Source of the DNA: an uncultured Pseudomonadales bacterium
Lineage (GTDB): Bacteria; Pseudomonadota; Gammaproteobacteria; Pseudomonadales; Cellvibrionaceae
Direction: 5' to 3'
NCBI GenBank assembly: GCA_947487765.1
Contig: CANKXO010000007.1
Span: 22,180 to 86,179, forward strand
DNA length: 64,000 bases
The translations under genes and the position numbers were made by a program. How positions within the stretch are numbered: position 1 is the stretch's first letter; each line of letters opens with the position of its first letter. Shown here piece after piece: positions 4,847-39,820 of the stretch. Under the pieces are notes generated by a model. The model was given only the letters and a program-made list of their open reading frames with translations. It did not search any database and had not been told where the DNA came from.

Positions 4847-7666
4847 TTATAGTAACTTTTTTAAAAACGCTCCAGTATGAGACAGTTTAACTTCACAAAT
4901 GGCTTCTGGAGTACCTTCGGCGATGATTTGGCCGCCACCACTGCCACCTTCGGGGCCTAGGTCAATAATCCAATCAGCTGTTTTAACAACGTCTAAATTG
5001 TGCTCGATGACGACAATAGTATTGCCGTGGTCGCGCAATCGATGCAGAACAGTTAAGAGTTGTTGGATATCATGGAAGTGGAGCCCTGTTGTGGGTTCGT
5101 CCAATATATAGAGCGTCTGGCCAGTATCTCTTTTAGAGAGTTCTTTTGATAACTTAACACGTTGAGCTTCACCACCCGAAAGGGTCGTTGCAGACTGCCC
5201 TAAACGAATATAAGAGAGGCCAACATCAATCAAGGTTTGCAGTTTGCGTGCAATCGCGGGTATGGCATCAAAAAACTCACGAGCATCCTCAATCGTCATA
5301 TCTAAGACTTGATGGATATTTTTCCCTTTGTAAAGAATCTCTAATGTCTCGCGGTTATAGCGTTTACCATGACAAACATCGCAAGCCACATAGACATCCG
5401 GTAGAAAATGCATTTCTACTTTAACAACACCGTCGCCTTGGCAGGCTTCGCAGCGTCCGCCTTTAACATTGAAGCTAAACCTCCCCGGCTTATAACCACG
5501 AGAGCGTGCTTCCTGTGTGCCAGAAAATAGCTCCCTGATGGGAGTAAAGATACCTGTATAGGTCGCTGGGTTTGATCGTGGCGTTCGGCCAATTGGGCTT
5601 TGGTCAATATCGACACACTTGTCAGCATGTTCCAGCCCTGTTATCTCTTTATAAGGAGCTGGCTTTAGAGTAGTTGCGCCATTCAATTCTGTTGCGACAA
5701 TGGGGTAAAGAGTCCCGTTAATCAATGTTGATTTTCCTGAGCCTGAAACACCGGTGATACACGTCATTAAGCCAAAAGGAATCGTCAGCGTTACATCTTG
5801 TAGATTATTGCCTGTGGCTCCACTTAAGACGAGCTGCTTTTCTGGATCCGCTTGGTGGCGCTTTTCAGGAACAATAATTTTCTTCTTTCCTGATAAATAC
5901 TGGCCAGTAAGCGAATGCTTACTTTTTGTAATATCCTTCAATTTACCTTGGGCGATAATCTCGCCACCGTGAACGCCCGCTCCCGGACCGATATCGATCA
6001 CGTGGTCTGCTTCACGAATAGCATCTTCATCATGTTCTACAACGATTACGGTATTGCCTAGGTCGCGTAAATGAATCAGTGTTTTCAATAGCCGCTCGTT
6101 ATCGCGCTGATGTAAGCCAATGGATGGTTCATCGAGAATATACATAACCCCAACTAAGCCCGCACCAATTTGGCTAGCTAAACGAATACGTTGTGCCTCG
6201 CCACCAGATAACGTCTCTGCACTGCGGTTCAATGTTAAATAGTTCAGGCCAACATCGTTAAGAAATCGAAACCGATCGCCAATTTCTTTCAATATTTTGT
6301 CAGCAATTTCGCCTTTGGCGCCCGTTAGTGTTAATTGCTGAAAATAATCATAGGCTTCGCCAATAGGGTAGGTGCAGATGTCGGGTAGTATTTTATTATC
6401 GATAAATACATTGCGTGCTTCTTCTCGTAATCGAGTCCCATTACAGCTGGGGCAATGTTGAGTTGACAATAGTTTGGCTAGATCTTCTCGTACTGTCTGG
6501 GATTCGGTATCCCTGTAGCGTCTCTCTAAGTTAGGAATTACACCTTCGAATGTATGTTTGCGCTTATAAGTATCGCCACGGTCATTAACATACGTAAAAT
6601 TGATTTCAGTGTCTCCAGAACCGAAGAGAATCACGTCTCTTTGTGCTTTTTTTAATTTTTCCCATGGAGTATCGGTATTAAATTTAAAATGTTTGGCTAG
6701 AGATTCCAGCATATGGAAATAATAGATATTACGTTTATCCCAGCCTCTTATAGCTCCTTCGGAGAGTGACGACTCAGGGAATTGGACAATTTTGCTTTCG
6801 TCGAAGTATTGTTTGACGCCGAGACCATCACAGGCAGGGCACGCACCTGCTGGATTGTTGAACGAGAATAATCTGGGCTCTAGTTCTGTAAGTGAATAGT
6901 CACAAACTGGGCAGGCATGTTTTGTCGAGAATATCTGATCTTCTCGCTCACCATCCATATAGCTAATTGCGATCAGGCCGCTCGATAACGTAACGCCTGT
7001 TTCAATGGATTCGGCCAGCCTGAGTTGTAAGTCATCGCGGACTTTAAATCGATCAACAACCGCATCGATTGTGTGCTTTTTCTTTTTGTCGAGTTCGGGT
7101 ACTTCATCTAAATCAACAACAAGACCATCAACTCTGACTCGAACAAAACCATCACGTCGTAACTGTTCAAAGACATGAACATGCTCACCTTTACGGTCAC
7201 GGACTATCGGTGCTAAGAGCATTAGTTTCGTGCCTTCAGGTAAGGCCAAAATAGAATCAACAATTTCACTTACAGTTTGTGCGGCAAGTGGAACGCCATG
7301 AGTAGGGCAGCGGGCTTCGCCAACGCGAGCGAAGAGCAAGCGCAAATAGTCGTATATTTCTGTAATAGTTCCTACGGTTGATCGGGGGTTGTGAGAGGTT
7401 GATTTCTGTTCGATTGAAATTGCCGGGCTTAGTCCTTCAATATGATCGACATCGGGTTTTTCCATCATCGACAGAAATTGTCGTGCGTAAGTAGAAAGTG
7501 ATTCGACGTAGCGTCGTTGCCCTTCAGCATAAAGTGTATCAAATGCTAACGATGATTTTCCTGAGCCGGATAGTCCAGTGATAACAATAAATTTATCGCG
7601 AGGAATGTTGAGATCAATGTTTTTTAAATTATGGGTGCGTGCACCCCGAACAGTAATAGTATCCAC
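4847..7666 (-). CDS. uvrA: Excinuclease ABC subunit A
   Basis: 939 aa starting [58 protein letters not shown]... It has two ABC modules and zinc-finger cysteines. Confidence 0.97.
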
Positions 7667-7945
7667 AAAAACGACTCAGTGACGGAATAAACAGCGAAGT
7701 ATAATTCATTAGGGTGAATGGGGGCAGGTTGTTTCCCTCAAAAAACTACTTTTAGATTCAGTATGAACAATATATTTCAGTATTGATTATTTCTCAGTCA
7801 TTTGAATGTATAAAGCAAAGTGATCCATTATTTTGAAACAACATTAAGCAGGTTCGCTATCCTATTATTTTTCGAGGGCTGATATTCCTTAACAGCGATG
7901 CACTCGCTTGATAGAATGCCGTGTTACTCATTATTTTAGGTCGTC

Positions 7946-25265: not shown

Positions 25266-25518
25266 GGCTTTCAAAAATATATCGCTATATTTTGTATAAA
25301 TAATAAAAATAAGCTTGAAATTTATCGTTACAAGCCTAGAATGCACATCAAATTAATTAATGCAGAGACTTTATCTTTGAAGCATTTACTCATATTTACA
25401 AATTACAGCATCGCTTCTGGGGCCGATAGTGCCCAAGAGATACGCTGTGCGTCAATATAACCTGTCTAAGTAAATATAGCTGGCAGGTTTAGCCTTCCAG
25501 TTTTAAAAAGTTATTAAA

Positions 25519-25553
25519 AACCCGGAAGGCATAACTGCTTTTCGGGTTTTTTT
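25519..25553 (+). terminator. Terminator-like hairpin + T7 run (copy 1 of a repeated module)
   Basis: AACCCG (25519-25524) pairs with CGGGTT (25543-25548), followed by a run of 7 T. The string CGGGTTTTTTTATGCCC recurs at 26150-26166. Confidence 0.55.
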
Positions 25554-26128
25554 ATGCCCGAGTTTTAAAAGTAAATGATGAGAGTAATTAGAACTTTGCT
25601 CTTATAAAGTTGTTGGTAGTTGCAATTTTGACAAATGCATAAAAATAGGAGAGTTATTATTGAAAGTTAATCAGAGGCTTAGATCGTTTATTTATAGATG
25701 AATAGTGTCATTCCACGAGTAGGGAAAATTTATTTTACAGATAAGTTTTCCTCGCTAAATTATTGTCGAATTTTTGTGAATATAGCCGCAATGGCATCGC
25801 TCGCCTATTGATTGCTAATACAATATAACTTATTGATATATAGATATTATTTCAAAAAATACTATGCCTTGTTTTAATTTTTATTACGGGCTATTGTTTA
25901 AAAAGATTTACGAAACAACACATCCAAGTGTTAACAAAAAAGAGATTTAACCATGAACCGATTACTCGGAATAAATAACCATCATACAGCTTCAGAGTGG
26001 CCATTAAAGAGTCAGCTGCTGCCGTTTAGTAATTGTTATCGTCAAAATCAAGGCGATATGAGTTTAGAGATGTAATTTGCACTTTCCTTACCGGAAGGCT
26101 GCAAGGCCAACCGGATACGTTTTTTTGA

Positions 26129-26160
26129 AACCCGATTGGCTTTGCTTATCGGGTTTTTTT
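26129..26160 (+). terminator. Terminator-like hairpin + T7 run (copy 2)
   Basis: AACCCGAT (26129-26136) pairs with ATCGGGTT (26148-26155), followed by a run of 7 T. Confidence 0.55.
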
Positions 26161-26193
26161 ATGCCCTTCATGGATGAAGGGTACATCGAAAAT

Positions 26194-26243
26194 GCAGGTC
26201 GGCTTTTGCTCCTGCAAAACCGACATTCACGCCATCCATGGCG
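26194..26243 (+). repeat. Conserved ~50-nt two-hairpin module, copy A (loops GCTCCTGC and ATCCAT)
   Basis: GCAGGTCGGCTTTTGCTCCTGCAAAACCGACATTCACGCCATCCATGGCG aligns with 27383-27429. Shared blocks are GCAGGT, GCTCCTGCAAAACC, CATTC and CCATCCATGG. The stems differ but stay paired. Confidence 0.7.
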
Positions 26244-26498
26244 CTTGAGCAATTTTTTGAGTGCCCAAAGATGGAAGATGAACCCATAACGCTCGAGAAC
26301 CTTTCGAGTATTAAAGGATTAATTTTACATGGCAGTATTTTAGGAAGTTACTCCACAAGGATGTTTTTTAATAGTGCAATGCCCACTTACACGGCATTAG
26401 TTTTTTAACAATTTGGTCGCTTTTTCCGGCATATAAGAAAGGTAAATACATTCTCGGTAATCTCGATGAGTCGTATTTTTTACTTATATGCCAAGTAT

Positions 26499-26653
26499 GC
26501 CCCTATCGTCTAGTTGGATAGGACGCTGGGTTTTCAATTCAGTAACGTCGGTTCGCCGCAAGCGGACCGGTCCAAAGTTATAAACTTTGGCCGTTCAAGA
26601 AACGCAAAGCATGCTTTGCTTAACATGTTTCTTTCACCCATCTAGGGGCACCA
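26499..26653 (+). tRNA. tRNA-Glu(UUC)-like gene interrupted by an ~85-nt structured insert in or after the T arm
   Basis: The 5' part is canonical: GCCCCTA-TC-GTCT-AGTTGGATA-GGAC-G-CTGGG-TTTTCAA-TTCAG-TAAC-GTCGG-TTCG. The 3' end TAGGGGC-A-CCA pairs perfectly with the 5' acceptor strand. The intervening sequence forms hairpins CCGC/GCGG, CCAAAGTT/AACTTTGG, and AAGAAAC..GCAAAGC/GCTTTGC..GTTTCTT. Confidence 0.6.
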
Positions 26654-26663
26654 ATAATTTGTT

Positions 26664-26740
26664 ACGTCGATAGCTTAACTGGCAAAAGCTCTGGCCTCCA
26701 AAACCAGGCGATGTAGGTTCGAACCCTACTCGGCGTGCCA
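26664..26740 (+). tRNA. tRNA-Trp (anticodon CCA)
   Basis: Hand-folded cloverleaf. Acceptor ACGTCGA/TCGGCGT, D stem GCTT/AAGC, anticodon loop CTCCAAA, T arm GTAGG-TTCGAAC-CCTAC, then G-CCA encoded. Confidence 0.85.
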
Positions 26741-26749
26741 AACATAAAT

Positions 26750-26909
26750 GCAGTGATAGCCCCAATAGATCGGCAGATTTTTGTTTCATTGAAGATCAGG
26801 AGAGTGCTGGTTCGACAGCTTTGTAGGAGCAAAAGTTGGACGCTTGTATAGGCGGTCGAGAAGCGATTATGCACAAGGATGTGTATAACAATTCCGGCTC
26901 ACTGCACCA
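26750..26909 (+). tRNA. tRNA-like gene, anticodon undetermined, with a ~72-nt four-hairpin insert in the T loop
   Basis: The acceptor GCAGTGA/TCACTGC is perfect, followed by A-CCA. T stem GCTGG (26806-26810)/CCGGC (26894-26898), with TTCGA then the insert from 26816. The anticodon arm is a 7-bp stem (GATTTTT/GAAGATC) with an 8-nt loop GTTTCATT. Confidence 0.55.
26819..26888 (+). repeat. Four-hairpin insert module, copy 1 (inside the T loop of the 26750 gene)
   Basis: P1 CTTT-GTAGGAGC-AAAG; P2 CGCTT-GTAT-AGGCG; P3 GTCG-AGAAG-CGAT; P4 TATGCACA-AGGA-TGTGTATA. Order and spacing match 29484-29551, with compensatory stem changes. Confidence 0.75.
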
Positions 26910-26916
26910 GTTTTAT

Positions 26917-26993
26917 TTCGGTGTGAAGCAGAGTGGTAATGCGCCTGACTGTTAATCAGGAGTTCGTTGGTTCGACCCTAGCCGCCGGAGCCA
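26917..26993 (+). tRNA. tRNA-Asn (anticodon GUU)
   Basis: Acceptor TTCGGTG/CGCCGGA (with G-U pairs), anticodon arm CCTGA-CTGTTAA-TCAGG, T arm GTTGG-TTCGACC-CTAGC, then G-CCA. Confidence 0.8.
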
Positions 26994-27001
26994 ATTTTAT
27001 T

Positions 27002-27083
27002 GAGGGTGTTGAGCAGGTGGTGAGCTCAGCGGACTGTAAATTCGCCGGAAACTATGTAGGTTCGATTCCTTCCACCCTCACCA
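27002..27083 (+). tRNA. tRNA-Tyr (anticodon GUA)
   Basis: Acceptor GAGGGTG/CACCCTC, D stem GAGC/GCTC, anticodon arm GCGGA-CTGTAAA-TTCGC, a 10-nt variable region, T loop TTCGATT, then A-CCA. Confidence 0.85.
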
Positions 27084-27090
27084 AATTTCC

Positions 27091-27168
27091 GGGCCAATAG
27101 CATAATCGGTAAATGCCCCGGCCTCATAAGCCGGAGAAGGAGCGGTTCGAATCCGCCTTGGCCTACCA
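27091..27168 (+). tRNA. tRNA with CAU anticodon (elongator Met or lysidine-dependent Ile2)
   Basis: Acceptor GGGCCAA/TTGGCCT, D stem GCAT/ATGC, anticodon arm CCGGC-CTCATAA-GCCGG, T loop TTCGAAT, then A-CCA. Confidence 0.8.
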
Positions 27169-27186
27169 ATTAAATGATTAGTTAAT

Positions 27187-27261
27187 AGCGGTGTTGAGCA
27201 ATGGCTGCTTTCGGGTTTCATATGCCCGAGCTTGTTGGTTCGATTCCAACCACCGCAACCA
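27187..27261 (+). tRNA. tRNA with CAU anticodon, initiator-like features
   Basis: Positions 1-72 are unpaired (A.A) above the 6-bp stem GCGGTG/CACCGC. The 3' end CACCGCAACCA resembles the fMet end CCCCGCAACCA. The anticodon stem CGGGT/GCCCG carries three consecutive G-C pairs, and the loop is TTCATAT. Confidence 0.75.
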
Positions 27262-27265
27262 AATT

Positions 27266-27356
27266 GGAAGTGTGGCCGAGTGGTAAGGCAGCGGATTGCT
27301 AATCCGTACAGTGATAAATCGTTGCTGCATGAGTTCGAATCTCATCACTTCCTCCA
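27266..27356 (+). tRNA. tRNA-Ser (anticodon GCU), type II
   Basis: Acceptor GGAAGTG/CACTTCC, anticodon arm GCGGA-TTGCTAA-TCCGT, a long variable arm, T arm ATGAG-TTCGAAT-CTCAT, then T-CCA. Confidence 0.85.
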
Positions 27357-27382
27357 AAATACTCCGGTGATGCAATTGGAAG

Positions 27383-27483
27383 GCAGGTTAAGGCTCCTGC
27401 AAAACCTGCATTCCCACCATCCATGGTGGTCACATAGCCCACTTAAAATCGGTTTGTTGCGAGTTCGACTCTCGCCGTCTGCA
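27383..27483 (+). tRNA. tRNA-like gene (anticodon loop CTTAAAA = UAA, Leu-type) carrying the two-hairpin module in its 5' (D-arm) region
   Basis: The T arm GCGAG-TTCGACT-CTCGC is canonical. The 3' acceptor strand CGTCTGC-A pairs with GCAGGT at 27383. The anticodon arm is GCCCA-CTTAAAA-TCGGT (4 of 5 bp), and there is no encoded CCA (TCA instead). An alternative outer pairing is TGATGCA (27368-27374)/TGCATCA (27480-27486). Confidence 0.4.
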
Positions 27484-27492
27484 TCAGTTTTT

Positions 27493-27565
27493 CGTGAGGT
27501 AATTCAATTAGCAGAATGCGATTTTCATAAAATCGGCGATAGTGGTGCAAGTCCACTCTTCACGA
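27493..27565 (+). tRNA. tRNA with CAU anticodon, non-consensus T loop
   Basis: Acceptor CGTGAGG/CTTCACG, D stem ATTC/GAAT, anticodon arm CGATT-TTCATAA-AATCG. The T arm AGTGG-TGCAAGT-CCACT has G instead of T at position 55. The 3' end is A-CCG, so CCA is incomplete. Confidence 0.7.
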
Positions 27566-27574
27566 CCGGTTAAT

Positions 27575-27648
27575 AGCAGCGTGGTGTAACGGTAACACAC
27601 CGGACTTTGACTTCGGTATTTCAGGTTCGAATCCTGGCGCTGTTGCCA
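27575..27648 (+). tRNA. tRNA-Gln (anticodon UUG)
   Basis: Acceptor AGCAGCG/CGCTGTT, D stem GTGT/ACAC, anticodon arm CCGGA-CTTTGAC-TTCGG, T arm TCAGG-TTCGAAT-CCTGG, then G-CCA. Confidence 0.85.
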
Positions 27649-27688
27649 AATAGTATGTTGAGTAGGGTTCTAAAAATATTTAATTTTT

Positions 27689-27763
27689 GTGCGAGTGGCA
27701 GAATGATGATGCGCGGAACTGCAACTTCCGTTTACGCCGGTTTGATTCCGGCCTCGCACTCCA
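27689..27763 (+). tRNA. tRNA-Cys (anticodon GCA)
   Basis: Acceptor GTGCGAG/CTCGCAC, anticodon arm CGGAA-CTGCAAC-TTCCG. The T arm GCCGG-TTTGATT-CCGGC has T rather than C at position 56. Ends T-CCA. Confidence 0.8.
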
Positions 27764-27769
27764 AATTTT

Positions 27770-27914
27770 CTGGATATAGCACAGCCTAGTAGCGTGTTGG
27801 GTTTAACTAAAATACATCCAAGTATTTTGCCCTTCGGGTTCTTCGAAGTTCAAAACGTTCCAGACGTTTTGTGGAGCTCAAAGTTTGTGGGTTCAAACCC
27901 TGCTATCCAGACCA
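27770..27914 (+). tRNA. tRNA-like gene, anticodon undetermined, with ~70 extra nt between the anticodon region and the T arm
   Basis: The acceptor CTGGATA/TATCCAG is perfect, followed by A-CCA. D stem GCAC/GTGT and T arm GTGGG-TTCAAAC-CCTGC are present. The interior holds hairpins AAAACGT-TCCAG-ACGTTTT and TTTG-TGGAGCT-CAAA, the latter resembling the GYAGGAGC hairpin. Confidence 0.5.
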
Positions 27915-27926
27915 ATTAATTTAAAC

Positions 27927-28000
27927 GCGGTGTTGACCGAATGGTTAGGTACCTGCCTTCCAAGCAGAGGAAATGGGTTCGATTCCCATACACCGCTCCA
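27927..28000 (+). tRNA. tRNA-Gly (anticodon UCC)
   Basis: Acceptor GCGGTGT/ACACCGC, anticodon stem CTGC/GCAG with loop CTTCCAA, T arm ATGGG-TTCGATT-CCCAT, then T-CCA. Confidence 0.85.
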
Positions 28001-28008
28001 AAATTTAA

Positions 28009-28082
28009 TGAAGGTTGGCTTAGTGGCTGAGCACCGGACTTTTAATCCGGCTAGATGGGTTCGATCCCCATACCTTCAACCA
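28009..28082 (+). tRNA. tRNA-Lys (anticodon UUU)
   Basis: Acceptor TGAAGGT/ACCTTCA, D stem GCTT/GAGC, anticodon arm CCGGA-CTTTTAA-TCCGG, T arm ATGGG-TTCGATC-CCCAT, then A-CCA. Confidence 0.88.
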
Positions 28083-28115
28083 ATTACAATAAAACAACTA
28101 AAAGGAGATCGTATT

Positions 28116-29312
28116 ATGGCGATTAAAAAAGTATTGGCGCCGCATAAAGATCAGCGGTTGCCTGTAAAAATTTGGACGGATGATATTGATTACAGCACGC
28201 AGGCTCAGTTGAGTCGTGTAGCGAACTTACCATTCGTTTATAAGCATGTAGCAGCGATGCCTGATGTACATCTCGGAAAAGGCGCCACTGTTGGTTCAGT
28301 GATTGCAACCGATAAAGCTATTATCCCTGCAGCTGTGGGTGTGGATATTGGATGTGGAATGAATGCAGTGAGATTATCTATTAAAGCAAAAGATTTGCCT
28401 GATAGCCTAAAATTGATTCGAAACGGAATTGAATCAGTTGTACCTTTAGGTCCCGGAGGTCAACATCGTGACCCCAAAATTGCTGGTGGTCATGATATAT
28501 CAATGCGTCTATGTACTATTTTTGAAAAACACCCGAAGTTAAGTAAGCGCGTTAAAGTGAATGGGTTTGCGAAACAATTAGGAACGCTGGGCTCAGGAAA
28601 TCATTTCATTGAATTATGTTTAGATGAAAATGATGACGTGTGGATTATGTTGCATTCAGGGAGTCGTGGAGTTGGCAATAAAATCGGTATGTACTTTATC
28701 GAAATTGCTAAACGAGAAATGGAAAAATGGATGATTCACTTACCTGATAAAGACTTGGCTTATCTATCTGAAGGGTCAGAATATTATGATGACTATATTG
28801 AAGCAGTTTCTTGGGGGCAAGATTATGCGGCATTGAATCGCACGCATATGATGAATGCAGTAATGCTAGAACTACGTAAGTATTTACCTGCGTTTACAAT
28901 CACACAAGAGGCTATCAATTGCCACCATAATTATGTTGAAAAGGAAAATCATTACGGCAAAAACGTATGGGTAACGCGTAAAGGCGCAATCCGTGCGAGA
29001 AAGGATGATCTTGGTATTATTCCCGGGTCCATGGGTGATAAAAGTTTTATTGTTCGTGGTAAAGGTGAATCTGAATCATTTTGTTCTTGTTCCCATGGTG
29101 CGGGTCGACGATTGAGTCGTACTGCAGCTGCAAAAACTTTTTCCGTTGCTGATCTCGTATCAGCTACTGAAGGAATAGAATGTCGTAAAGACAGGGGTGT
29201 CATTGATGAAATTCCAATGGCATATAAGCCTATCGATAGCGTGATGGATAACCAAACTGATCTAGTGGATATAGTTCATACACTTCGACAAGTCGTCAAT
29301 GTAAAAGGCTAG
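28116..29312 (+). CDS. rtcB: RNA-splicing ligase RtcB (copy 1)
   Basis: The start was moved to the ATG at 28116, which has the RBS AAGGAG 8 nt upstream. The track ORF start at 27885 runs through three tRNA genes. RtcB motifs are present: GVDIGCGMN, GSGNHFIE, HSGSRGVGN, CHHNY, PGSMGDKS, SCSHGAGR. Confidence 0.93.
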   Translation: MAIKKVLAPHKDQRLPVKIWTDDIDYSTQAQLSRVANLPFVYKHVAAMPDVHLGKGATVGSVIATDKAIIPAAVGVDIGCGMNAVRLSIKAKDLPDSLKLIRNGIESVVPLGPGGQHRDPKIAGGHDISMRLCTIFEKHPKLSKRVKVNGFAKQLGTLGSGNHFIELCLDENDDVWIMLHSGSRGVGNKIGMYFIEIAKREMEKWMIHLPDKDLAYLSEGSEYYDDYIEAVSWGQDYAALNRTHMMNAVMLELRKYLPAFTITQEAINCHHNYVEKENHYGKNVWVTRKGAIRARKDDLGIIPGSMGDKSFIVRGKGESESFCSCSHGAGRRLSRTAAAKTFSVADLVSATEGIECRKDRGVIDEIPMAYKPIDSVMDNQTDLVDIVHTLRQVVNVKG

Positions 29313-29358
29313 AAAGGACTTAGCCTTTTCTTTCACCTCTTTCCTCATTTTTAATTTA

Positions 29359-29432
29359 GCCCAATTGGCATAGTGGTCGTGCAGCTGCTTTGTAAGCAGC
29401 AGAGACAGGTTCAATTCCTGTATTGGGCTCCA
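29359..29432 (+). tRNA. tRNA-Thr (anticodon UGU)
   Basis: Acceptor GCCCAAT/ATTGGGC, D stem GCAT/GTGC, anticodon arm GCTGC-TTTGTAA-GCAGC, T arm ACAGG-TTCAATT-CCTGT, then T-CCA. Confidence 0.85.
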
Positions 29433-29441
29433 GTTTACATC

Positions 29442-29593
29442 GCCTGATTAGTTCAATTGGACTTAGAGCATCCGCCTACGACAATTTTGCAGGAGCAAAA
29501 ATTGGGCGTCTATAGAGGCGATCGTGAAACGATAATGTGCAGGACGCATATTACAAACGGGAAGATGCGGGTTCGAATCCTATTCAGGTGCCA
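29442..29593 (+). tRNA. tRNA-Arg(ACG)-like gene with the four-hairpin insert in the anticodon loop
   Basis: The 5' half is canonical: GCCTGAT-TA-GTTC-AATTGGACTTA-GAGC-A-TCCGC-CTACGA. The insert follows from about 29482. The 3' part GCGGG-TTCGAAT-CCTAT-TCAGGTG-CCA has a weak T stem, and no clean 3' anticodon-stem strand was found. Confidence 0.45.
29484..29551 (+). repeat. Four-hairpin insert module, copy 2 (inside the anticodon loop of the 29442 gene)
   Basis: P1 ATTTT-GCAGGAGC-AAAAT; P2 CGTCT-ATAG-AGGCG; P3 ATCG-TGAAA-CGAT; P4 ATGTGC-AGGAC-GCATAT. Collinear with 26819-26888. Confidence 0.75.
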
Positions 29594-29601
29594 AATTTAT
29601 T

Positions 29602-29678
29602 ACTCTCGTAGCTTAATTGGATAGAGCGTCTGTCTTCGAAACAGAACGGTGTTGGTTTGATTCCAACCGAGAGTGCCA
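29602..29678 (+). tRNA. tRNA-Arg (anticodon UCG)
   Basis: Acceptor ACTCTCG/CGAGAGT, D stem GCTT/GAGC, anticodon arm TCTGT-CTTCGAA-ACAGA, T arm GTTGG-TTTGATT-CCAAC (T at position 56), then G-CCA. Confidence 0.82.
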
Positions 29679-29917
29679 ATAATTATTATTAATAAACCCG
29701 AGAATCTTTAGGTGTGGCCGTGGCAGATTGATAAATTTACCGGGAGTAAATTTAGACGCGGGAGAGAAGCGACGGCGCCCGTAGGGGTTGTAACATGGAT
29801 GTTACAAACCAATGTGCGCTTAACTTTGGCTTAAGTGCCCTTGGTTTTTGGAAAGGGGAGTTCAGGTCGCATCGGTCACCCCTAAAGGTTTTTACTAATA
29901 GAAAAGGAGGTCAAGCA

Positions 29918-30211
29918 ATGAGACTTGCTATAACGCGATCAGGTTTTTATAACGCTGATCTTTATTGCGCTGATACTCGTACAGCTAAAAGAGTGTTGCG
30001 TGAAAAAAATATTTCCATATTGGCTATCGACTATTATCTAGTTGGCCAGGGAAATGGTTGCGATATTATTGATTGGGCTAAAAGAAATGCAGTTTTGCCT
30101 AATTTTATCGTTGTTATTGAACGTAATCGCAACAAACGAGCCTTATTATCGAATACATTACGAAATATAGGTTATCGCTCTGGTGATGATACTACCTTTA
30201 TAAGGCATTAA
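29918..30211 (+). CDS. Small receiver-fold-like protein, possibly a degenerate 'cyclic-phosphate processing receiver' (cREC)-type domain
   Basis: The start was moved to the ATG at 29918, which has a strong RBS AAGGAGG. The upstream part of track ORF 29795.. overlaps a structured RNA region. The 97-aa protein contains ...ILAIDYYLVGQGNGCDIIDWAK...PNFIVVIERNRNKRA... This resembles from memory the hhhDhDLG...G.dhh.Wh...hhhHS.N layout of small REC-like proteins that accompany RtcB, but the catalytic-type residues are replaced. Confidence 0.45.
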   Translation: MRLAITRSGFYNADLYCADTRTAKRVLREKNISILAIDYYLVGQGNGCDIIDWAKRNAVLPNFIVVIERNRNKRALLSNTLRNIGYRSGDDTTFIRH

Positions 30212-32749: not shown

Positions 32750-34531
32750 CTAGCGAAAAGATACAATCAAAAATATAAGTACAGCAATTGCCGCAAAAAT
32801 CATTACGCGAGCGAAGGGTTGCATAGAATCTGTATTAGATGCATCCGATAGCCATGGTGATTGAGATTCTTTCTGTTGTTGTGACTTAGTTTCTTCCTTT
32901 TTTGTTTGTTTTTTTGCGGTCGCTATTTGTTTAAGCTCTTCTGTAGTATTCTCTTTAACAGGTGGTGCTGGTGGCTCAGCTTGCCACCAGTTTTCGCGTG
33001 GTGCTTCACCGGCAGCGGCCTTTAAGCGTAAAAGTTTATTATTTAATTTGCCAATGCGACTTGGATTAACTTGATAACTGTATTTTTGTTTTAGTTGTAC
33101 TATTTGCTTTTGTAAAGGAATGCCCTTGCTAGGGTTAACCATTGCGACAAAGTTGGCGTAACCTTCTATGGAGCACAATAAATTGCTACTGCTATTGTGA
33201 GAACGATGAGCCCAGTGCTTACCCTCTAGCCCGCTTTTGTCAATTTGATGTAGTAAGGCTCTGAAGCGCTTTAAGGTCTTGCGATCAACGCTAAGGTTAT
33301 TATTCACTACCACGCCGGTCACTTCTTGTTTTTTATGCTTGCGCATAATGCGTGTTTTTTCGGGGTGAACAATAAAACCTTCATCCTTAATAATACTATG
33401 ACAACGCCACAATAGTTTTTTTACAATGCTGTCGTCAATATTCTGTGGATTAATATCATCGCCCTTGTTGGAGCTTGCCGAAAAAGTAACATCGTCAGCA
33501 TATCGCGTATAAGTAAAGCCTAATTTTTTAGCCATCCCTTGTAAGCGAGCATCCAATTTTCTACAGATGATATTGCTAATATTAGGGCTAGTTGGCGCTC
33601 CTTGCGGTAAAAAGCGCTCTCCGTTACTAACAAACCAAGACTGACTATCTAGTTCAACCTCCTGTGTATTCGCTTCGGTGCAAAGTAAGGCTAGTACTGT
33701 TGCAATGTGTTCACTGTAACCTAGAGCTTTAAACATCCCCTTAACTCTTGGATAGCTAATTGTTGGAAAGAAGTTTTTAAGGTCGAGGTTAATAACAATA
33801 TCTTTGCCTACATGAGGCGCAGCATTGGTTACGATAGAGCGCGTGCGTACAAAGCCATGAGCGGCATCATGTAATGCCAGCGGCTCTAAAATATTGGATA
33901 AAACCCAATACTGGGCAAGTTTCAACCGTGGCATAGGGGCAGATATTAGGCGAGTTCCACCGGTTTTCTTGGTCATTTGGAAGCGTTGATAATGACTAAT
34001 CGTGCAGACATCTTTTTGGTAGACTAAAAAACGTAGCTCATTAACGGTAATGCCCATGGCTCTGGCCAACATTTGGCTGTCGTGCAGTAGTGGTAACTGT
34101 TGGGCTTGGAGTTTGTCTTCATCGCTGTTAACTTTTGATAGCCCTATCGATAAACCTTCCCCTACGAAGGTAATAAATTTCTTTTGGATGTCGTACCAAT
34201 TCTTTGCTCGTTGGTATCGTGTTTCATTGCGTTCTTTACGCTTTTCTTCTCTACGAATAAGTGCTTCTTTTTTACGCTGTTTGTGTAACTCCTTTAGTGC
34301 TTGCTCTGGGTCTTGATACAATTGCTGTTGCTTTCCTAATTCACGCAGTTGCTTTTGTAACTGCCCGCGCTTTTCAATAAAGGTTTCTGTTAGTGTTGGC
34401 TGTTCACTATTTTTTGGCCAAAACCCAAGACGTTTCATCTCTGCTAAAATATAAACTTCTTTACCACCTGTTTCGCGTACGCGCTGGTAGAGTTCTTGGC
34501 GGCTTAATTTTTTAGTGCTTTCGTCAGACAT
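32750..34531 (-). CDS. Reverse transcriptase, retron/Abi-DRT-like, with N-terminal extension and C-terminal TM anchor
   Basis: RT motifs are present: NAAPH (NAxxH), INLDLKNFFPTI, LPQGAPTSP, YTRYADDVTFS, and QEVTGVVVNN (VTG). There is a ~190-aa charged N-terminal extension, a K/E/Q-rich tail, and a terminal hydrophobic helix MIFAAIAVLIFLIVSF. The RBS GGGAGA lies upstream. Confidence 0.9.
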   Translation of the reverse strand: MSDESTKKLSRQELYQRVRETGGKEVYILAEMKRLGFWPKNSEQPTLTETFIEKRGQLQKQLRELGKQQQLYQDPEQALKELHKQRKKEALIRREEKRKERNETRYQRAKNWYDIQKKFITFVGEGLSIGLSKVNSDEDKLQAQQLPLLHDSQMLARAMGITVNELRFLVYQKDVCTISHYQRFQMTKKTGGTRLISAPMPRLKLAQYWVLSNILEPLALHDAAHGFVRTRSIVTNAAPHVGKDIVINLDLKNFFPTISYPRVKGMFKALGYSEHIATVLALLCTEANTQEVELDSQSWFVSNGERFLPQGAPTSPNISNIICRKLDARLQGMAKKLGFTYTRYADDVTFSASSNKGDDINPQNIDDSIVKKLLWRCHSIIKDEGFIVHPEKTRIMRKHKKQEVTGVVVNNNLSVDRKTLKRFRALLHQIDKSGLEGKHWAHRSHNSSSNLLCSIEGYANFVAMVNPSKGIPLQKQIVQLKQKYSYQVNPSRIGKLNNKLLRLKAAAGEAPRENWWQAEPPAPPVKENTTEELKQIATAKKQTKKEETKSQQQKESQSPWLSDASNTDSMQPFARVMIFAAIAVLIFLIVSFR

Positions 34532-34689
34532 CTGCCTGTCTCCCTAATATAAATAAGGATAAATGTTGAGTGTTAAAAAAATGGATAATGATAGTTGTTA
34601 CAAGAACAAATAAAGAAGAGAAGTGCGCAAGATAAAAGGGTGCCAGCGTGCTCAATGTTTCCTTCGTAGAGCTCTTAGTACTGGATTGA

Positions 34690-34785
34690 TCAACTCGACG
34701 CGGCACGCCCCTACTATCGCTCATTGACTTCATGGAAGTCATACCGCAATAGCGATAGTAGGGGCTGTGCCGCCCTATGAAGATC
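34690..34785 (-). ncRNA. Highly structured non-coding element immediately upstream of the RT (candidate RT template or msr-msd-like RNA)
   Basis: A 22-bp interrupted inverted repeat joins GCGGCACGCCCCTACTATCGCT (34700-34721) to AGCGATAGTAGGGGCTGTGCCGC (34751-34773). It encloses a second hairpin TGACTTC-ATG-GAAGTCA (34725-34741). It lies in the 400-nt gap between the SWIM gene and the RT. Strand and ends are not determined. Confidence 0.45.
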
Positions 34786-34931
34786 AGGCCAGTGACGCGT
34801 GTGTAGTCTATAAACCAGAACGGCGATGCACCGCTCAAATTGCAAGGTAGATAAGTCACGCTGACACCTGTGCTAGTATAGCAGTGTTGTTAGGTTTTAA
34901 AAGAGCGCTATTAAAATTCTTCATGATCTCT

Positions 34932-36572
34932 TTAACCGTTTGCTAAGGAATATTGTTTTCTGATCGCTAATATATGTTCGCATGGCCCCATGCGCAGTAA
35001 ATTCGTTCGATAAAAATAACAGTCGCAGCTAGCCTCTTTTAAACGTTGATCGCCGTCAATTTTAATCTCAGTGTTCAAATGGTGTCCGTCATCAATGACT
35101 GTTCCTTGAATTTGAGCACCTCTTTCATTTTCTAGCTTATGATGAATTGTCACCAAGTTGGCGGCCACAAATCGAGCAGACTTTTCATCGCGCTCATTAG
35201 CAAAACGCAATGAGTCCATCGGTAAAGGTTGTTGGCTAAGTTCACGGATACGATAAACACTTCCGGCTAAATCATAAAGCACTTGCCCCTGTTGGCTATA
35301 GGCAGCCAATGCAGATTTCACTACTGACTCATCTAAATGCAGTCGTCGTGCCAGTGAGTCACTGGATTCTTGCCATGTCTCTGATAGTGCTTGGTAAACA
35401 CGTTTAAGTGTTACTTCGTCAACATCACCTCTAGGCGCTAATAGATCAAAGTTACCCATTCGTGACCAATCATTTGCTGACCAGCCCGACAAACCTAAGG
35501 TAAATGTCATATCGCCTAAATCGGCAACGTAAAAACTAGGTAAGCCATTACCTAATAGATGTACCGTAAATTTTTTGGCGATAGGGATTAAACGCTCCAA
35601 TATATGCAGGCGACGGCGCCCCCATATACGAATTGATCTAGCGTCATTTCCTGTATAAATGCTTCTGGCTAATATTAATTCTGTGCCCCATGGCTCTAAG
35701 ATAATTTTAATAGGCTCATCTGATGCCAGTTCAAATCGTATTGCCCGAGGGCCTACGCGCTCTCTTTTACGCCGCAACATATAACAAATATTGTGAATAT
35801 CCATTGGGTGCAATGTTAATGTGGTCATGGGTAAGGTCATAGCTGAGCTTACCTGTAAAAAACCACGCACCCAGCTTTCAGGAAGATCAATTTTCTTTTC
35901 GTCAAATTGTTCCTCATGGCTGGTTTGCATACTGAAACCATCGGGGTCAATTGCCAATGCTGTTTGGCGATACTCTCTTATTTTTTGAAATTCGTTGTAT
36001 AAACCTTCCGAGTAATCAATATTTGTGGTGCCGTAAGAAGTATCGGTTATATTATCAAATACGTCATAGCTACAGCTAAGTTTTCCGTAACTTGATTCAT
36101 CTTCAGAAAAACATTCAAAAAAAACTTCGTCGGGATGGACGGTAATTACTGGGTCAAGTACATACCAAGCATCCATATCGGTTTTATAAAGATGTTTGAA
36201 ATATTTGTTCTGAGCTGTATAAAAAGGCCCCATTAATGCTTGGCTTTGCTTGCTAAGTTCAGATAGTTCTTTGCGCACAAGCTCAATTTCGCCTTCCACC
36301 TGTGACTTGCGACCAATAAATTCTGCCAATAGCCGCTCTTCTTCTTCAGCTAGCCAGCGCTCGTATTCGCTGCGATCTTTTGGCTGAAAGCGCATATCAG
36401 AAATCACAACATTGTGTAGTGCCGATATCGCCTCACGAAAAGCTATTTTCTGCTTAAGCTGTCCTACAAAATAAGTAGGTAGGCGCAAACTGTCAGGCAC
36501 AAAAGATACATCTGTACTCGCTGCATTGCTCGCAACATGGCTCTGCCCATGATATCGATAACGAAATTCCAT
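34932..36572 (-). CDS. SWIM zinc-finger domain protein
   Basis: 546 aa. A C-terminal SWIM CxC...CxH signature is present (ASCDCYFYRTNLLRMGPCEHILAIR). It lies directly downstream of the WGR protein on the same strand. Confidence 0.8.
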   Translation of the reverse strand: MEFRYRYHGQSHVASNAASTDVSFVPDSLRLPTYFVGQLKQKIAFREAISALHNVVISDMRFQPKDRSEYERWLAEEEERLLAEFIGRKSQVEGEIELVRKELSELSKQSQALMGPFYTAQNKYFKHLYKTDMDAWYVLDPVITVHPDEVFFECFSEDESSYGKLSCSYDVFDNITDTSYGTTNIDYSEGLYNEFQKIREYRQTALAIDPDGFSMQTSHEEQFDEKKIDLPESWVRGFLQVSSAMTLPMTTLTLHPMDIHNICYMLRRKRERVGPRAIRFELASDEPIKIILEPWGTELILARSIYTGNDARSIRIWGRRRLHILERLIPIAKKFTVHLLGNGLPSFYVADLGDMTFTLGLSGWSANDWSRMGNFDLLAPRGDVDEVTLKRVYQALSETWQESSDSLARRLHLDESVVKSALAAYSQQGQVLYDLAGSVYRIRELSQQPLPMDSLRFANERDEKSARFVAANLVTIHHKLENERGAQIQGTVIDDGHHLNTEIKIDGDQRLKEASCDCYFYRTNLLRMGPCEHILAIRKQYSLANG

Positions 36573-36643
36573 ATTTTTGCCTGAGAAATTTTTCTGAAAA
36601 TTATGAATCTAATGCGTTTTTGTATAATTTTTATATAGCGTTT

Positions 36644-39600
36644 TTAAACACCCAGCGATGCAGGTTGTTTAATGGGTACCTTTTTGGCTGTTAAGGGTGA
36701 TGCTATATCTGGATACAATGATTGTAATTTAAGCATAGCTTTTATCAAAGCGGCTTTATCTTTATGTACCATAGTTAACGAAATTCGTTCCAATAAAGGC
36801 ATTACCATAGTGGCAACACTTATATCTTTTTCTGCTTCTCTTAATAAAAACAGTAGAATCCTATCTTTACAAACGCGACCCTTATTAATTTGTGATAACG
36901 CTGTTGTAAAATAAGCTTGTAATGAAAGTATATGGCTAGGAATACCCGCCGCGTATTCTTCTAAAAAACTGCTGACAAAAAGCTGTACATTATTTGACGG
37001 ATGCTGGCTTAACTTAAGCAAGTATTCTGGGCCATACTCAGCTTTAAAAAAAGATTGTAGTATTTCGCGTCCAAAGCTTTGTACGTCATCTCTGATGCTG
37101 TCGCAAATAAAAATAACAATTTCAGGGCTCCAATCTTCTTGGCTGTATTGTTGTCGAAAAAAATCAAAGCCAAAGGTTCTTGCATCGTCCCAGTTGCTAT
37201 TTAGAATTCGAAGAGCATCACGACTGTATTGTTTAATTTCATCTACATTTTTCTCGTAAGCCTGAAATGCAAACTGCCTGACAGATACATCGCTATGCTG
37301 GCCTAATATTGCCCATTGTTTGACTGAAAATATATCTGCATTACGTTCAGTTAAGGTTATGGCGCCCACTCGTTGAGCACAGATAGATTGTGCCTGTAAT
37401 AAGCGCCATAGCATATCATTGTCTAGTTTCGTTAAATGTGATTGTGCCAATGAAGTAAAAAAGGCAATTAATTCTTCATGTTGCCCAGGCTGCTCTTCAG
37501 ACTTAAATGTCAGCGCTAATAATGTATTTTCAATCTGCTCGGATCCCTGTTGAGAGTTGGTCATTAGGCGGGAAAAAATAGAAAGTAGGGAGGCGCGCTC
37601 TTGAGTATCGCCCTTGCAATACAAGCCGACTAATAAGTCTAATTGTTTGATTAAGTCTTTATCGGCTTGTTTGCCTAGTAATGCAGCACCTATCCCTCTA
37701 ACTTCGGCTGAGGATGAATCATGAATTGCCTGTAATAAGCTGTCGGGAATATCTCCATAAGATATTTTGTGTCCAAGCAATAATTTTGCACCTAATATTT
37801 TTCTGGGTACTTTCTCGTCATGAATTAAACGTTGCAAACTAGTAAGAGGGAAGTGTTTAATTGCATCATTTAGGTTCTCAAGTGCAAAATCGGCCAAATA
37901 CTCTGCATGCTTTTCGCTTAAGTTGCTGTTCTCTAAAAAGATAGAATCAACTATAGCTTGCAATAGTTTCTCAGCATTTCTACCAGAAATCTTTTGCTGG
38001 CAAACAGCCGTTTTAATGTCACTTTGTACATCACTATGAAGAATCAATAGTAGTGATGTTAATAGTGAAATATCATCATTAATTTTGAACCTTAGTAAAG
38101 ATTGCTTACCTAATACTCTAGCCTCAGTCAGCGAGCTACTTAGTAGAGCGATTAATAATTCACTACTTAAATCGTCTTGTTTAATGCGTTCGCGAACAAT
38201 TGCTAGTGCAAATTCACAAGTACTCGCATAGTTGCTGTTCAGTAAAAGAGCTAAATCTACAGGGCTGATTTTCTGGCAAAAACTCGGTTGATTTTCTAAT
38301 ATCCGACGAGCGAAAGGATGAACCAGCTCGCATCGACTTGTTTTTAATAAGCGTAGTGCATGGCTAGGCTTTTGATCCCAAAGTTCAGCAAAGCATTCGG
38401 TACGAGATCCATTTATCAAGGAAGTACCGTCGGTATTCGACTCATCACTTTTTATCCAGACGCGGCCACTAGGTGCAAGTTGATACCCTGGATGATGTTC
38501 GAAGAGGATATGATTTAAGCTTAAGAAGCTGGCAAAAGGGCCATATTCATTGCTGGATATCAACTGGCGTTGCCAATTGTCGCCACTATTATCCCAGCGA
38601 TAAACCTCTGATGTTCGAGGCTTGCTACCATGCTCATCATTAATCGCAAGCAATGATTCTGTTGCCATATCAACATAACGGAGATCACCGGCCTGTCCTA
38701 TACGCCTGAGTACTCGCCAGCTACGACGGCGAAAGTAATCTCGTGTACGATGCGAGAAGGTCAATTTTGCATTGGCCTTTTTCAGTTCTTTAGATGGTTT
38801 AATACTGCCTTCACCGGGAAGCCATGCCCAATCCCAATCATTACGAAAAAATGCGGGTGCTGTTTCTATACGCTGCGCTAATAAGCCAAATACAGACCCG
38901 TCAAGACGTAGCTCGGATGCTTTATAAATTGATCTAATGCCCCGAAAATATCCTGGGGTTAGGGGAATAATAGCCAGTTGACTTAATAATGCTTGATGCA
39001 ATATGGGGTAAGCTAGCGATAGCTGATAACAAAGTACCAATAGCTGATTAGTATTGTTAACGTTGTCACTAGCCCCATGACTGAGCAACGCGCCAAGTTG
39101 CTGATGAGCAGTGCTACTATTTCCTTCCATAACAGCAGATTTAAACTGTGCAGGAAAGTGCTGCCAATGGCTGCCTAACAAGGCTTTGCGCGATGTTTGG
39201 TCGCTGATTAATAGTTGCGATTCAAAGGCTATATGACAAACTTGTGCTTGTTTGTGTTGCCTCAAGGTTTCTAAAACCGCCTTGTGTTGCGTGGCAACCA
39301 TCCGCCCCAAGGCCCAAGCAATAGAGTAATCCTCTAACCAATGGCCTTTCTTAATATAGGGCACAATTGCATTGGCAATAGGTTCACAATCTCGGTGCCC
39401 TAATTCCCCGAGTCGCCATATCATGCGGCTGCGAGATTTAGTCTCTTTTTCATTGGGTAAATGATTGAGTATCTGTTCAATTAGTTTAAAAGGAAAGTCA
39501 TCGGAGGCAAGATTGCTAGAAGGGACGCCTGCAAGTGTAGGCGAGGTAGTAGTAGGGGACTGTTTTGCTTGTTCTCTATCCCAATAGCCTTTATTGACTT

Positions 39601-39820
39601 TGGATACAACAACACTATCAAATAGCTTCTCTGCTTTGCTAAGCTCAACAGCTTCAGGGGTTTTAGTGCCTTCTCTTAATTGATTGCCGCGACGCCCGTA
39701 TCGAAAATTAACGAGATAACGTTCATCTTTTCGGCTTGCTAACTCACATAAATCAACTTCATAAACTTTGTCGGAATTGCCTTCCTGATACACCAATCGA
39801 GATTGCTTGATTAGTCGCAT
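36644..39820 (-). CDS. WGR-domain protein with long helical (HEAT/ARM-like) repeat region
   Basis: 1058 aa. An N-terminal WGR domain is present (LVYQEGNSDKVYEVDL...YLVNFRYGRRGNQLREGTK...AEKLFDSVVVSKVNKGYW). The remainder is leucine-rich and alpha-helical in character. Confidence 0.8.
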   Translation of the reverse strand: MRLIKQSRLVYQEGNSDKVYEVDLCELASRKDERYLVNFRYGRRGNQLREGTKTPEAVELSKAEKLFDSVVVSKVNKGYWDREQAKQSPTTTSPTLAGVPSSNLASDDFPFKLIEQILNHLPNEKETKSRSRMIWRLGELGHRDCEPIANAIVPYIKKGHWLEDYSIAWALGRMVATQHKAVLETLRQHKQAQVCHIAFESQLLISDQTSRKALLGSHWQHFPAQFKSAVMEGNSSTAHQQLGALLSHGASDNVNNTNQLLVLCYQLSLAYPILHQALLSQLAIIPLTPGYFRGIRSIYKASELRLDGSVFGLLAQRIETAPAFFRNDWDWAWLPGEGSIKPSKELKKANAKLTFSHRTRDYFRRRSWRVLRRIGQAGDLRYVDMATESLLAINDEHGSKPRTSEVYRWDNSGDNWQRQLISSNEYGPFASFLSLNHILFEHHPGYQLAPSGRVWIKSDESNTDGTSLINGSRTECFAELWDQKPSHALRLLKTSRCELVHPFARRILENQPSFCQKISPVDLALLLNSNYASTCEFALAIVRERIKQDDLSSELLIALLSSSLTEARVLGKQSLLRFKINDDISLLTSLLLILHSDVQSDIKTAVCQQKISGRNAEKLLQAIVDSIFLENSNLSEKHAEYLADFALENLNDAIKHFPLTSLQRLIHDEKVPRKILGAKLLLGHKISYGDIPDSLLQAIHDSSSAEVRGIGAALLGKQADKDLIKQLDLLVGLYCKGDTQERASLLSIFSRLMTNSQQGSEQIENTLLALTFKSEEQPGQHEELIAFFTSLAQSHLTKLDNDMLWRLLQAQSICAQRVGAITLTERNADIFSVKQWAILGQHSDVSVRQFAFQAYEKNVDEIKQYSRDALRILNSNWDDARTFGFDFFRQQYSQEDWSPEIVIFICDSIRDDVQSFGREILQSFFKAEYGPEYLLKLSQHPSNNVQLFVSSFLEEYAAGIPSHILSLQAYFTTALSQINKGRVCKDRILLFLLREAEKDISVATMVMPLLERISLTMVHKDKAALIKAMLKLQSLYPDIASPLTAKKVPIKQPASLGV

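Follow-up and report, generated by a model that had tools for sequence, protein, structure and literature searches.

The described systems that come closest to the element reported here are the repetitive extragenic palindromic (REP) sequences, with their bacterial interspersed mosaic element (BIME) and REPIN arrangements and the RAYT protein (TnpA-REP, of the HUH Y1 type), and the IS200/IS605 insertion sequences with the palindrome-associated transposable elements (PATEs). Insertion into the loops of pre-existing palindromic repeats is known from IS1397/ISKpn1 and IS110-family elements, which target REP/BIME or attC hairpin loops; short insertions at position 37/38 and at non-canonical D- and T-loop positions occur in archaeal and eukaryal tRNA genes, and the Rfam Bacillaceae-1 RNA (RF01690) has two adjacent hairpins with UCCU-type terminal loops. 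Long tRNA arrays with RtcB and HNH neighbors are an already described kind of island (PMC8421152), sharing with the island analyzed here dense CCA-encoding tRNA genes, rtcB, an HNH gene, pseudogenes and frequent indels, and small interrupting elements go undescribed there. Here we analyze a 64,000-nt window from an uncultured Pseudomonadales bacterium (contig CANKXO010000007.1, positions 22,180 to 86,179), a gammaproteobacterial chromosome segment of ~41% GC with an accessory tRNA island that has been entered twice by a 49-nt, two-hairpin element (the 49-mer). The 49-mer is discrete, mobile and widely distributed, with a recognizable target, and the pairs of complementary hairpin loops to which a first-pass annotation had drawn attention are very probably a single two-hairpin module present in both orientations.

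The eight motif positions given in that annotation, covering GYAGGAGC, CATGGATG and their complements (Table 1), are all exactly as claimed. The 3.6-kb island holds four of the seven window matches of GYAGGAGC and four of the six of CATGGATG; a shuffled 64-kb window is expected to hold 2.3 and 2.0, respectively, and the observed counts were reached in none of 100 shuffles. Long-stem hairpins with such GGA or UCC loops also cluster in the island. The conserved 8-mers had been described as loops; they are not open, as their ends pair (GC..GC and CA..UG) and the true loops are tetraloops, AGGA and UGGA or the complementary UCCU and UCCA (NGGA or UCCN). The stems do differ from one copy to the next and covary, so that they are different yet always paired, as had been noted.

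Two repeats of about 50 nt, placed earlier at 26194-26243 and 27383-27429, are likewise real, with an exact extent of 49 nt (B1 and B2 in Table 1). Both are found on the minus strand by a covariance model that was derived from unrelated copies in metagenomes and built on the GGA-loop strand, and these are the only two copies in the 64-kb window; in B1 the plus strand shows UCCU and UCCA loops and the minus strand GGA loops. The reference for alignment was locus L081, the closest syntenic relative, which has the same flanking genes and an RtcB 95% identical to that of the window. B1 splits leader hairpin H2, whose counterpart in L081 is intact and reads AAAATGCAGGAGCAATTTTTT, and the pseudogene holding B2 was fused by a T-arm-to-T-arm deletion and ends TCA in place of CCA. 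Since L081 has neither unit, both insertions are recent; one occupies the AGGA loop of a leader hairpin, the other the tRNA-Leu(UAA) D loop.

The same GGA-strand model also picks up plus-strand leader modules, aligning along its whole length in L081 (scores of 31.5 bits, E ~7e-5, and of 21 bits) and scoring 12.5 bits on the insertion-split module of the window, which bears out the suggestion of one motif inserted in two orientations. Hairpin H1 is included in the covariance-model match at 26163-26224 and is conserved in L081 at 4127 and 4232. On its folded strand the module reads stem-CAUGGAUG-stem followed by stem-GCAGGAGC-stem, with 17 nt between the 8-mers. This 17-nt spacing is found in both UCC units and, after the insertion is removed, in the sense-strand GGA pair 26169..26215; the complementary loops and the equal spacing are both accounted for, because inversion of one module yields both. 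Plus-strand GGA hairpins, those of the leader module, of the family A insertions and of the 80-nt tRNA-His insert discussed below, would then be opposite-orientation relatives. In L081 ~105 nt of the leader GGA module are tandemly duplicated (4127-4330), with three GGA-loop hairpins per unit, and the window has one copy.

The GGA-loop strand is the selected fold of the 49-mer. On this strand 96.2% of cells pair and 98 cells are changed on both sides, a result that none of 500 shuffles reaches, and slid registers drop to 36–53% pairing. Among the variable stem pairs, the UCC strand has 53 A.C mismatches versus 14 G.T, and this excess indicates that wobble pairs are tolerated on the GGA strand. 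The GGA strand is antisense to every host RNA gene of known direction (five tRNAs and three group II introns). The asymmetric target described below offers the simplest explanation for the fixed orientation of the 49-mer in tRNAs, and the intergenic contexts display no GC-skew or coding-strand bias for the 49-mer (the carrying strand has positive skew at 38 loci versus negative at 41, a noisy proxy with loci of 4–15 kb).

Metagenome contigs contain at least 120 matches to the 49-mer pattern. Among the matches listed there are 113 unique flanks and 76 distinct 49-mers, at loci with GC contents between 31 and 72% that group into 45–53 host-context clusters, with several copies per metagenome and per contig (L135, L185, L186, L192 and L204). 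Filled and empty sites that differ by exactly 49 nt are paired in at least eight unrelated host families, with no target duplication. With one representative per host cluster among the matches listed, the nucleotide before the insertion is G and the one after it is A, each in 38 of 45, and only this G^A persists of an apparent GCAGG^AG target. The raw GCAGG^AG logo came from one over-represented host family, and targeting guided by pairing of the GCAGGAG loop with the target was rejected for this reason. At 42% of sites the two flanks pair with one another along 6 bp or more, compared with 14% in controls, and with this tendency to pair the 49-mer sits in the loop of a host hairpin.

The hosts of the 49-mer include both RNA genes and other repeats. 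The tRNA-Met and tRNA-Thr genes of L084 each hold an exact 49-nt copy in the D loop, and its removal in silico gives canonical tRNAs; a diverged copy is in the D loop of a tRNA-Ala-like gene of L218, and a decayed copy is in the D loop of a Phe-like gene of L082 that also bears family A. All five tRNA D-loop hosts have one shared site (GG-N-N-G^A) and one shared orientation. Outside tRNAs the 49-mer is found in group II introns, in REP-like palindromes (hosts of the GTGGGAGCGG... type often contain it nested) and in a miniature inverted-repeat transposable element (MITE) of ~250 nt with terminal inverted repeats, one copy of which bears a tandem pair of 49-mers. The MITE itself (L147, 4130-4500, with paralogues in L105, L146, L149, L166, L180, L185 and L186) combines imperfect terminal inverted repeats of 24 bp with a long central helix; copies occur both with and without the 49-mer, and some host a second nested palindromic element (CCCAGCACCTAAAT...ATTTAGGTGCTGGG).

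Phage records, plasmid records and viral contigs gave no match to the 49-mer, and a phage or plasmid origin was set aside on this ground. The family A pattern has two chance matches only in viral contigs, both in protein-coding-looking sequence. Rfam searches of the window and 41 loci, at gathering thresholds and at E<=10, returned only tRNAs, the host group II introns and a sub-threshold Bacillaceae-1, leaving the 49-mer uncovered. In the literature CCATCCATGGCGG was not found, GCTCCTGCAAAA gave eight unrelated hits in eukaryotic and Pseudomonas papers, and related terms returned no description of the element. We found no published description of this family of small loop-targeting mobile elements.

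The first-pass annotation had also proposed that the RNAs of the array are built to form kissing-loop contacts with each other or with the 16S rRNA tail. In such a scheme the UCC-hairpin pair of the array would dock on GGA-hairpin pairs, on Shine-Dalgarno-like sequences or on the ribosome, and so regulate processing or expression of the tRNA operon. Both loops are perfectly complementary over 8 nt, the spacing is the same in both module types, and B1 lies 17 nt downstream of a CAUGGAUG hairpin. In the metagenomic loci, same-strand CATGGATG hairpins are enriched at distances of up to 120 nt from the 49-mer (14 exact, versus 0.37 expected; the complement has 7), and there is a weak likeness to the Bacillaceae-1 RNA with its two RUCCU-loop hairpins, the window scoring 26.4 bits against a gathering threshold of 35, with the metagenomic copies also below it and the taxonomic range different. 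We nevertheless regard designed kissing as highly improbable. The closest relative lacks the UCC units, and as to these motifs the syntenic island of L081 has no UCC-loop hairpin at all. B1 wrecks its own prospective GCAGGAGC partner hairpin by inserting in the loop, B2 lies in a dead tRNA gene, and the strand under selection for pairing is the GGA strand, not the one transcribed with the tRNAs. Partner loops near the metagenomic copies vary (AUGGAC, AGGGAU, ACGAAC) while the element loop is fixed, and the enrichment of CATGGATG near the 49-mer is explained equally well by nesting among related GGA-hairpin repeats as by functional pairing or a shared binding protein. The motif is a widespread element without a tie to this island, the circumstance that the annotation itself had named as refuting its proposal, and contact with the 16S rRNA tail finds no support; the likeness of CUCCU to the anti-Shine-Dalgarno sequence is an automatic result of complementing AGGAG. 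The earlier interpretation is thus partly supported, and the loop complementarity would be a by-product of orientation with no designed RNA-RNA contact.

The gaps between predicted tRNAs in the island contain tRNA-like genes with large inserts, as resolved by alignment to L081, and every hairpin of the first-pass annotation falls in a small insertion. Two of these insertions belong to family A, whose eight copies are spread over four genomes and four host tRNAs and always follow (T/A)C(G/A)A within a loop of 7 nt. The RNAalifold consensus has four hairpins with 26 pairs, 15 of which have compensatory change, and the sense strand contains 20 G.U versus 2 A.C. In copy 1 the hairpins are P1 (AGGA loop, GUAGGAGC, the motif already noted), P2, P3 and P4 (AGGA loop, CACAAGGAUGUG). 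A third insertion, D, occupies the D loop of a tRNA-His pseudogene, and the tRNA-His gene is intact in L081 at 7605-7678. Uninterrupted counterparts of tRNA-Phe, tRNA-Arg(ACG) and tRNA-His are present in L084 and L218 (tRNA-Phe in L084 at 2336; tRNA-Arg(ACG) in L084 at 4466 and in L218 at 6249). Family A, insertion D and the 49-mer have a common architecture, with a GGA-loop hairpin at or adjoining each end.

The position of family A raises the question of whether it, and perhaps the 49-mer too, could be bacterial tRNA introns of a protein-dependent kind, with exons joined by the array-encoded RtcB. The RtcB gene is embedded in the array, recalling the short tRNA insertions of archaea and eukaryotes with RtcB nearby; family A lies at the canonical 37/38 position of tRNA-Arg(ACG) with a structure conserved through compensatory changes on the sense strand; without it the T loop reverts to a canonical TTCGATT of 7 nt; and the tRNA-Met and tRNA-Thr genes of L084 become canonical when the 49-mer is taken out. 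We consider this extremely doubtful, however. No bulge-helix-bulge can be drawn, with no 4-bp central helix between exon and intron 3' end at family A or 49-mer junctions on inspection, and no splicing endonuclease (EndA in archaeal and eukaryal systems) was found in the island. Excision of family A from tRNA-Arg(ACG) is one nucleotide short in three genomes and would leave a 4-bp stem and an 8-nt loop (by comparison with L084), not a canonical tRNA. The 49-mer also occupies non-tRNA hairpins and folds on the strand antisense to the tRNA genes, several host genes are plainly dead, and RtcB and HNH neighbors are a general trait of long tRNA arrays (PMC8421152). Family A as a self-cleaving ribozyme or a bulge-helix-bulge intron was rejected, no supporting motif being found.

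The abundance of GGA loops is reminiscent of CsrA/RsmA sites, which have ANGGA in a loop and are bound two per dimer, and the array transcript could be a CsrA sponge or target, with the leader (26160-26410) and the family A inserts supplying sites; this is compatible with mobility, as the element might spread by carrying them. The SELEX-type CsrA consensus is RUACARGGAUGU, and CACAAGGAUGUG, AACAUGGAUGUU and UGCAGGAGCA appear to fit it. The ~250-nt leader has 6–7 GGA motifs and a terminator-like hairpin at its end, multiple ANGGA motifs are in hairpin loops, and paired GGA hairpins are 17–45 nt apart. On the other hand, there is no Rfam match to CsrB, CsrC or RsmX/Y/Z even at E<=10 and no upstream GacA box (TGTAAG-N6-CTTACA), on which grounds an Rsm-type small RNA gene in the leader was also rejected. 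Moreover, the 49-mer is antisense in all RNA genes of known direction, such that those transcripts bear UCC and not GGA, and it is found in genomes of very different GC content, so a role in CsrA binding seems unlikely.

Returning to the reading of the 49-mer as a mobile two-hairpin module, this 49-nt non-autonomous element inserts at G^A within the loop of a hairpin already in place, without target duplication, and we envisage that it is moved by an enzyme acting in trans that would recognize single-stranded DNA hairpins with GGA loops. The accessory tRNA array, being dispensable, would be colonized and degraded by such loop-targeting mini-elements; decay is evident in several hosts, the tRNA-Leu fusion ending TCA, the tRNA-His anticodon having changed and the tRNA-Ala acceptor stem of L218 being mismatched. 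Our tentative leading guess for the mover is an HUH/Y1-type transposase, REP/RAYT- or IS200/IS605-like. Like REP, BIME and REPIN sequences, the 49-mer is very short (20–50 nt), hairpin-forming, non-coding, multi-copy and non-autonomous, with one folded strand and no target duplication, and it occurs in both orientations close together in the manner of the alternating REPs of BIMEs; like the imperfect, hairpin-forming REP palindromes of 20–40 nt, it folds, into hairpins of 16 and 27 nt with strong covariation. With IS200/IS605 elements and PATEs it shares hairpins at or near both ends, the absence of terminal inverted repeats and of target duplication, a strand-specific fold tolerating G.T, and an orientation fixed relative to a short asymmetric target.

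Several points weigh against a single mobile module moved in this way. The invariance of the loops among metagenomic 49-mers is imposed by the search pattern, and the enrichment of CATGGATG hairpins nearby could reflect a functional pairing partner as well as nesting among related repeats. In 120 loci, neither a transposase nor any other recurrent protein was seen within 2.5 kb of the 49-mer, RAYT genes and linked tnpA or tnpB included, and the sole recurrent neighbor is the reverse transcriptase of the host group II introns. The GTAG/CGTC tag of REPs is not present, the GGA-strand consensus being GACCGCCATGGATGGCGGAAATGCAG..CTGC, and the lagging-strand signature of IS200/IS605 is missing from the noisy skew proxy given above, by which no IS608-like replication-strand bias was found either. 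REP-like repeats are normally species-specific, and near-identity across genomes of 31–72% GC is unusual for them, hinting at a conserved partner. The 49-mer further differs from REPs in having two different hairpins rather than one palindrome or inverted doublet and in inserting in RNA genes (tRNA D loops and group II introns), and from IS200/IS605 in that it requires no tetra- or pentanucleotide on the left, its target consisting of just G^A within the loop of a hairpin, and its ends are hairpin feet; 49 nt is also far below known PATE size. Because the REP tag, a specific left-flank target and a replication bias were sought and not found, we do not claim membership of the RAYT or IS200/IS605 groups. 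IS1397/ISKpn1 and the IS110-family elements, for their part, are full insertion sequences of 1.2–1.5 kb that encode a transposase, whereas the 49-mer has no coding capacity.

It is conceivable, though in our view rather doubtful, that the 49-mer, family A and the tRNA-His insert together constitute an undescribed ultra-small class of mobile elements homing into hairpin loops, those of tRNA D, T and anticodon arms and of group II introns among them, by neither the RAYT/REP nor the IS200/IS605 mechanism. The mover could then be a conserved enzyme, or an RNA-level cut-and-ligate step, recognizing hairpins with NGGA tetraloops, and the near-identity of the 49-mer over so wide a range of GC content would reflect dependence on a universal partner.

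A gene-less and nearly invariant 49-nt element that inserts cleanly at G^A in hairpin loops raises the question of what moves it, and the clean filled and empty pairs are ready-made substrates for addressing the mechanism. There are also consequences for annotation, in that mini-insertions mask recognizable tRNA genes, five of which ARAGORN and Rfam miss in this window alone, and give rise to spurious signals of "structured RNA". The build-up of such elements, and the erosion of tRNA genes that comes with it, shows accessory long tRNA arrays to be safe landing pads for them.

Table 1. Coordinates of motifs, elements, interrupted tRNA genes and neighboring features. Positions are those of the 64,000-nt window except where another locus is named.
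Feature	Position	Strand	Remarks
Motif GYAGGAGC	26823, 29489 (+); complement at 26208, 27393	+
Motif CATGGATG	26169, 29794 (+); complement at 26233, 27418	+
Leader hairpin H1	26162..26183	+	9-bp stem, UGGA tetraloop (CAUGGAUG); first hairpin of the sense GGA module M+
Leader hairpin H2	26189..26258	+	AAAAUGCAGG / AGCAAUUUUUU, AGGA loop; split by B1
B1, 49-nt two-hairpin element	26198..26246	-	In AGGA loop of H2; covariance model 70.7 bits; absent in L081
B2, 49-nt element	27383..27431	-	In D loop (TTGGAAG^ACAT); covariance model 58.2 bits; exact 49-nt difference from L081
tRNA-Leu pseudogene	27361..27486	+	tRNA-Leu(UAA) 5' part, B2, then tRNA-Leu(CAA) 3' end; alignment to L081 5299-5543
tRNA-Phe(GAA)-derived gene	26750..26909	+	Family A in T loop; D/anticodon region damaged; L081 alignment
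Family A copy 1	26816..26891	+	76 nt, inserted after TTCGA in T loop of tRNA-Phe-derived gene
tRNA-Arg(ACG)-derived gene	29442..29593	+	Family A in anticodon loop after CUACGA, position 37/38
Family A copy 2	29482..29556	+	75 nt; P1 is the previously noted GCAGGAGC and matches hairpin 2 of the 49-mer model, 26.7 bits
tRNA-His pseudogene	29714..29882	+	80-nt insertion D (29735-29814) in D loop; second 15-nt insertion; anticodon GTG -> TTG
Hairpin UUGUAA-CAUGGAUG-UUACAA	29788..29807	+	3'-terminal hairpin of insertion D
tRNA-Glu(UUC) gene	26503..26655	+	Interrupted in T loop; intact tRNA-Glu at L081 4520-4595
tRNA-like gene	27770-27914	+	Good acceptor stem, CCA and T arm; no assignable anticodon arm
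Hairpin AAAAUAC-AUCCAA-GUAUUUU	27809..27828	+	Sense-strand UCC-type loop, in tRNA-like gene 27770-27914; conserved in L081, L082
RtcB RNA ligase	28116..29312	+	Within tRNA array; Pfam PF01139, 428 bits; context only, nothing shows action on elements
Small ORFs + terminator	25448-25560, 25950-26165; L001 8890-9085; L084 1510-1745
ArfA-like small genes	L082 4668-4813; L083 5162-5302; L218 3641-3796; L220 4272-4412

Two further interruptions in the array are listed in Table 1. Insertion C (26556-26634, 79 nt), which follows GGTTCG in the tRNA-Glu T loop, has three hairpins and no GGA loops and is absent from L081, and is a further, unrelated mini-insertion. The tRNA-like gene at 27770-27914 has an extra insertion of ~35 nt relative to L081 that is specific to the window.

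The accessory tRNA island has 14 tRNAs predicted by ARAGORN, all on the plus strand and all with an encoded CCA, and alongside the RtcB ligase it encodes an HNH protein, an SPFH protein and a 97-aa protein of unknown family. Upstream of the island are housekeeping genes (for serine acetyltransferase, a LysR regulator and an M20 peptidase), and the multifunctional CCA-adding enzyme gene (cca) is downstream. The nearest relatives of the RtcB are 95%, 90%, 89% and 87% identical, and come from Cellvibrionaceae-like genomes and metagenomes (e.g. Aurantivibrio, Simiduia). Between the SPFH gene and cca is a type XIII retron defense module (32750-39820, minus strand; RT_XIII 623, SWIM_XIII 771 and WGR_XIII 1030 bits), which L081 is without, its SPFH (Band_7) gene being followed directly by cca. 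The retron was rejected as a source of retro-insertions, as nothing ties it to the elements and these are also present where there is no retron.

Small open reading frames (ORFs) upstream of the array are each followed by a near-identical terminator (AAACCCGG..CGGGTTTTTTTATGCCC), and may represent an attenuator-type leader of the tRNA operon; the region has a weak, sub-threshold match to the His operon leader (29.6 bits). The 97–98-aa protein encoded directly 3' of RtcB (29918-30211) is kept in nearly all related islands (L081-L224), has no match in Pfam, NCBIfam or PADLOC, and could be an RtcB partner. Related tRNA arrays include small genes adjoining RtcB that code for ArfA-like proteins (alternative ribosome-rescue factor), with Pfam PF03889 recorded for three, and the island family thus unites tRNAs, an RNA ligase and ribosome rescue. 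In L092, L093 and L094 there is an ARAGORN tRNA with a four-base anticodon (atga) ~650 nt 3' of RtcB, which could be frameshift-suppressor-like or degenerate.

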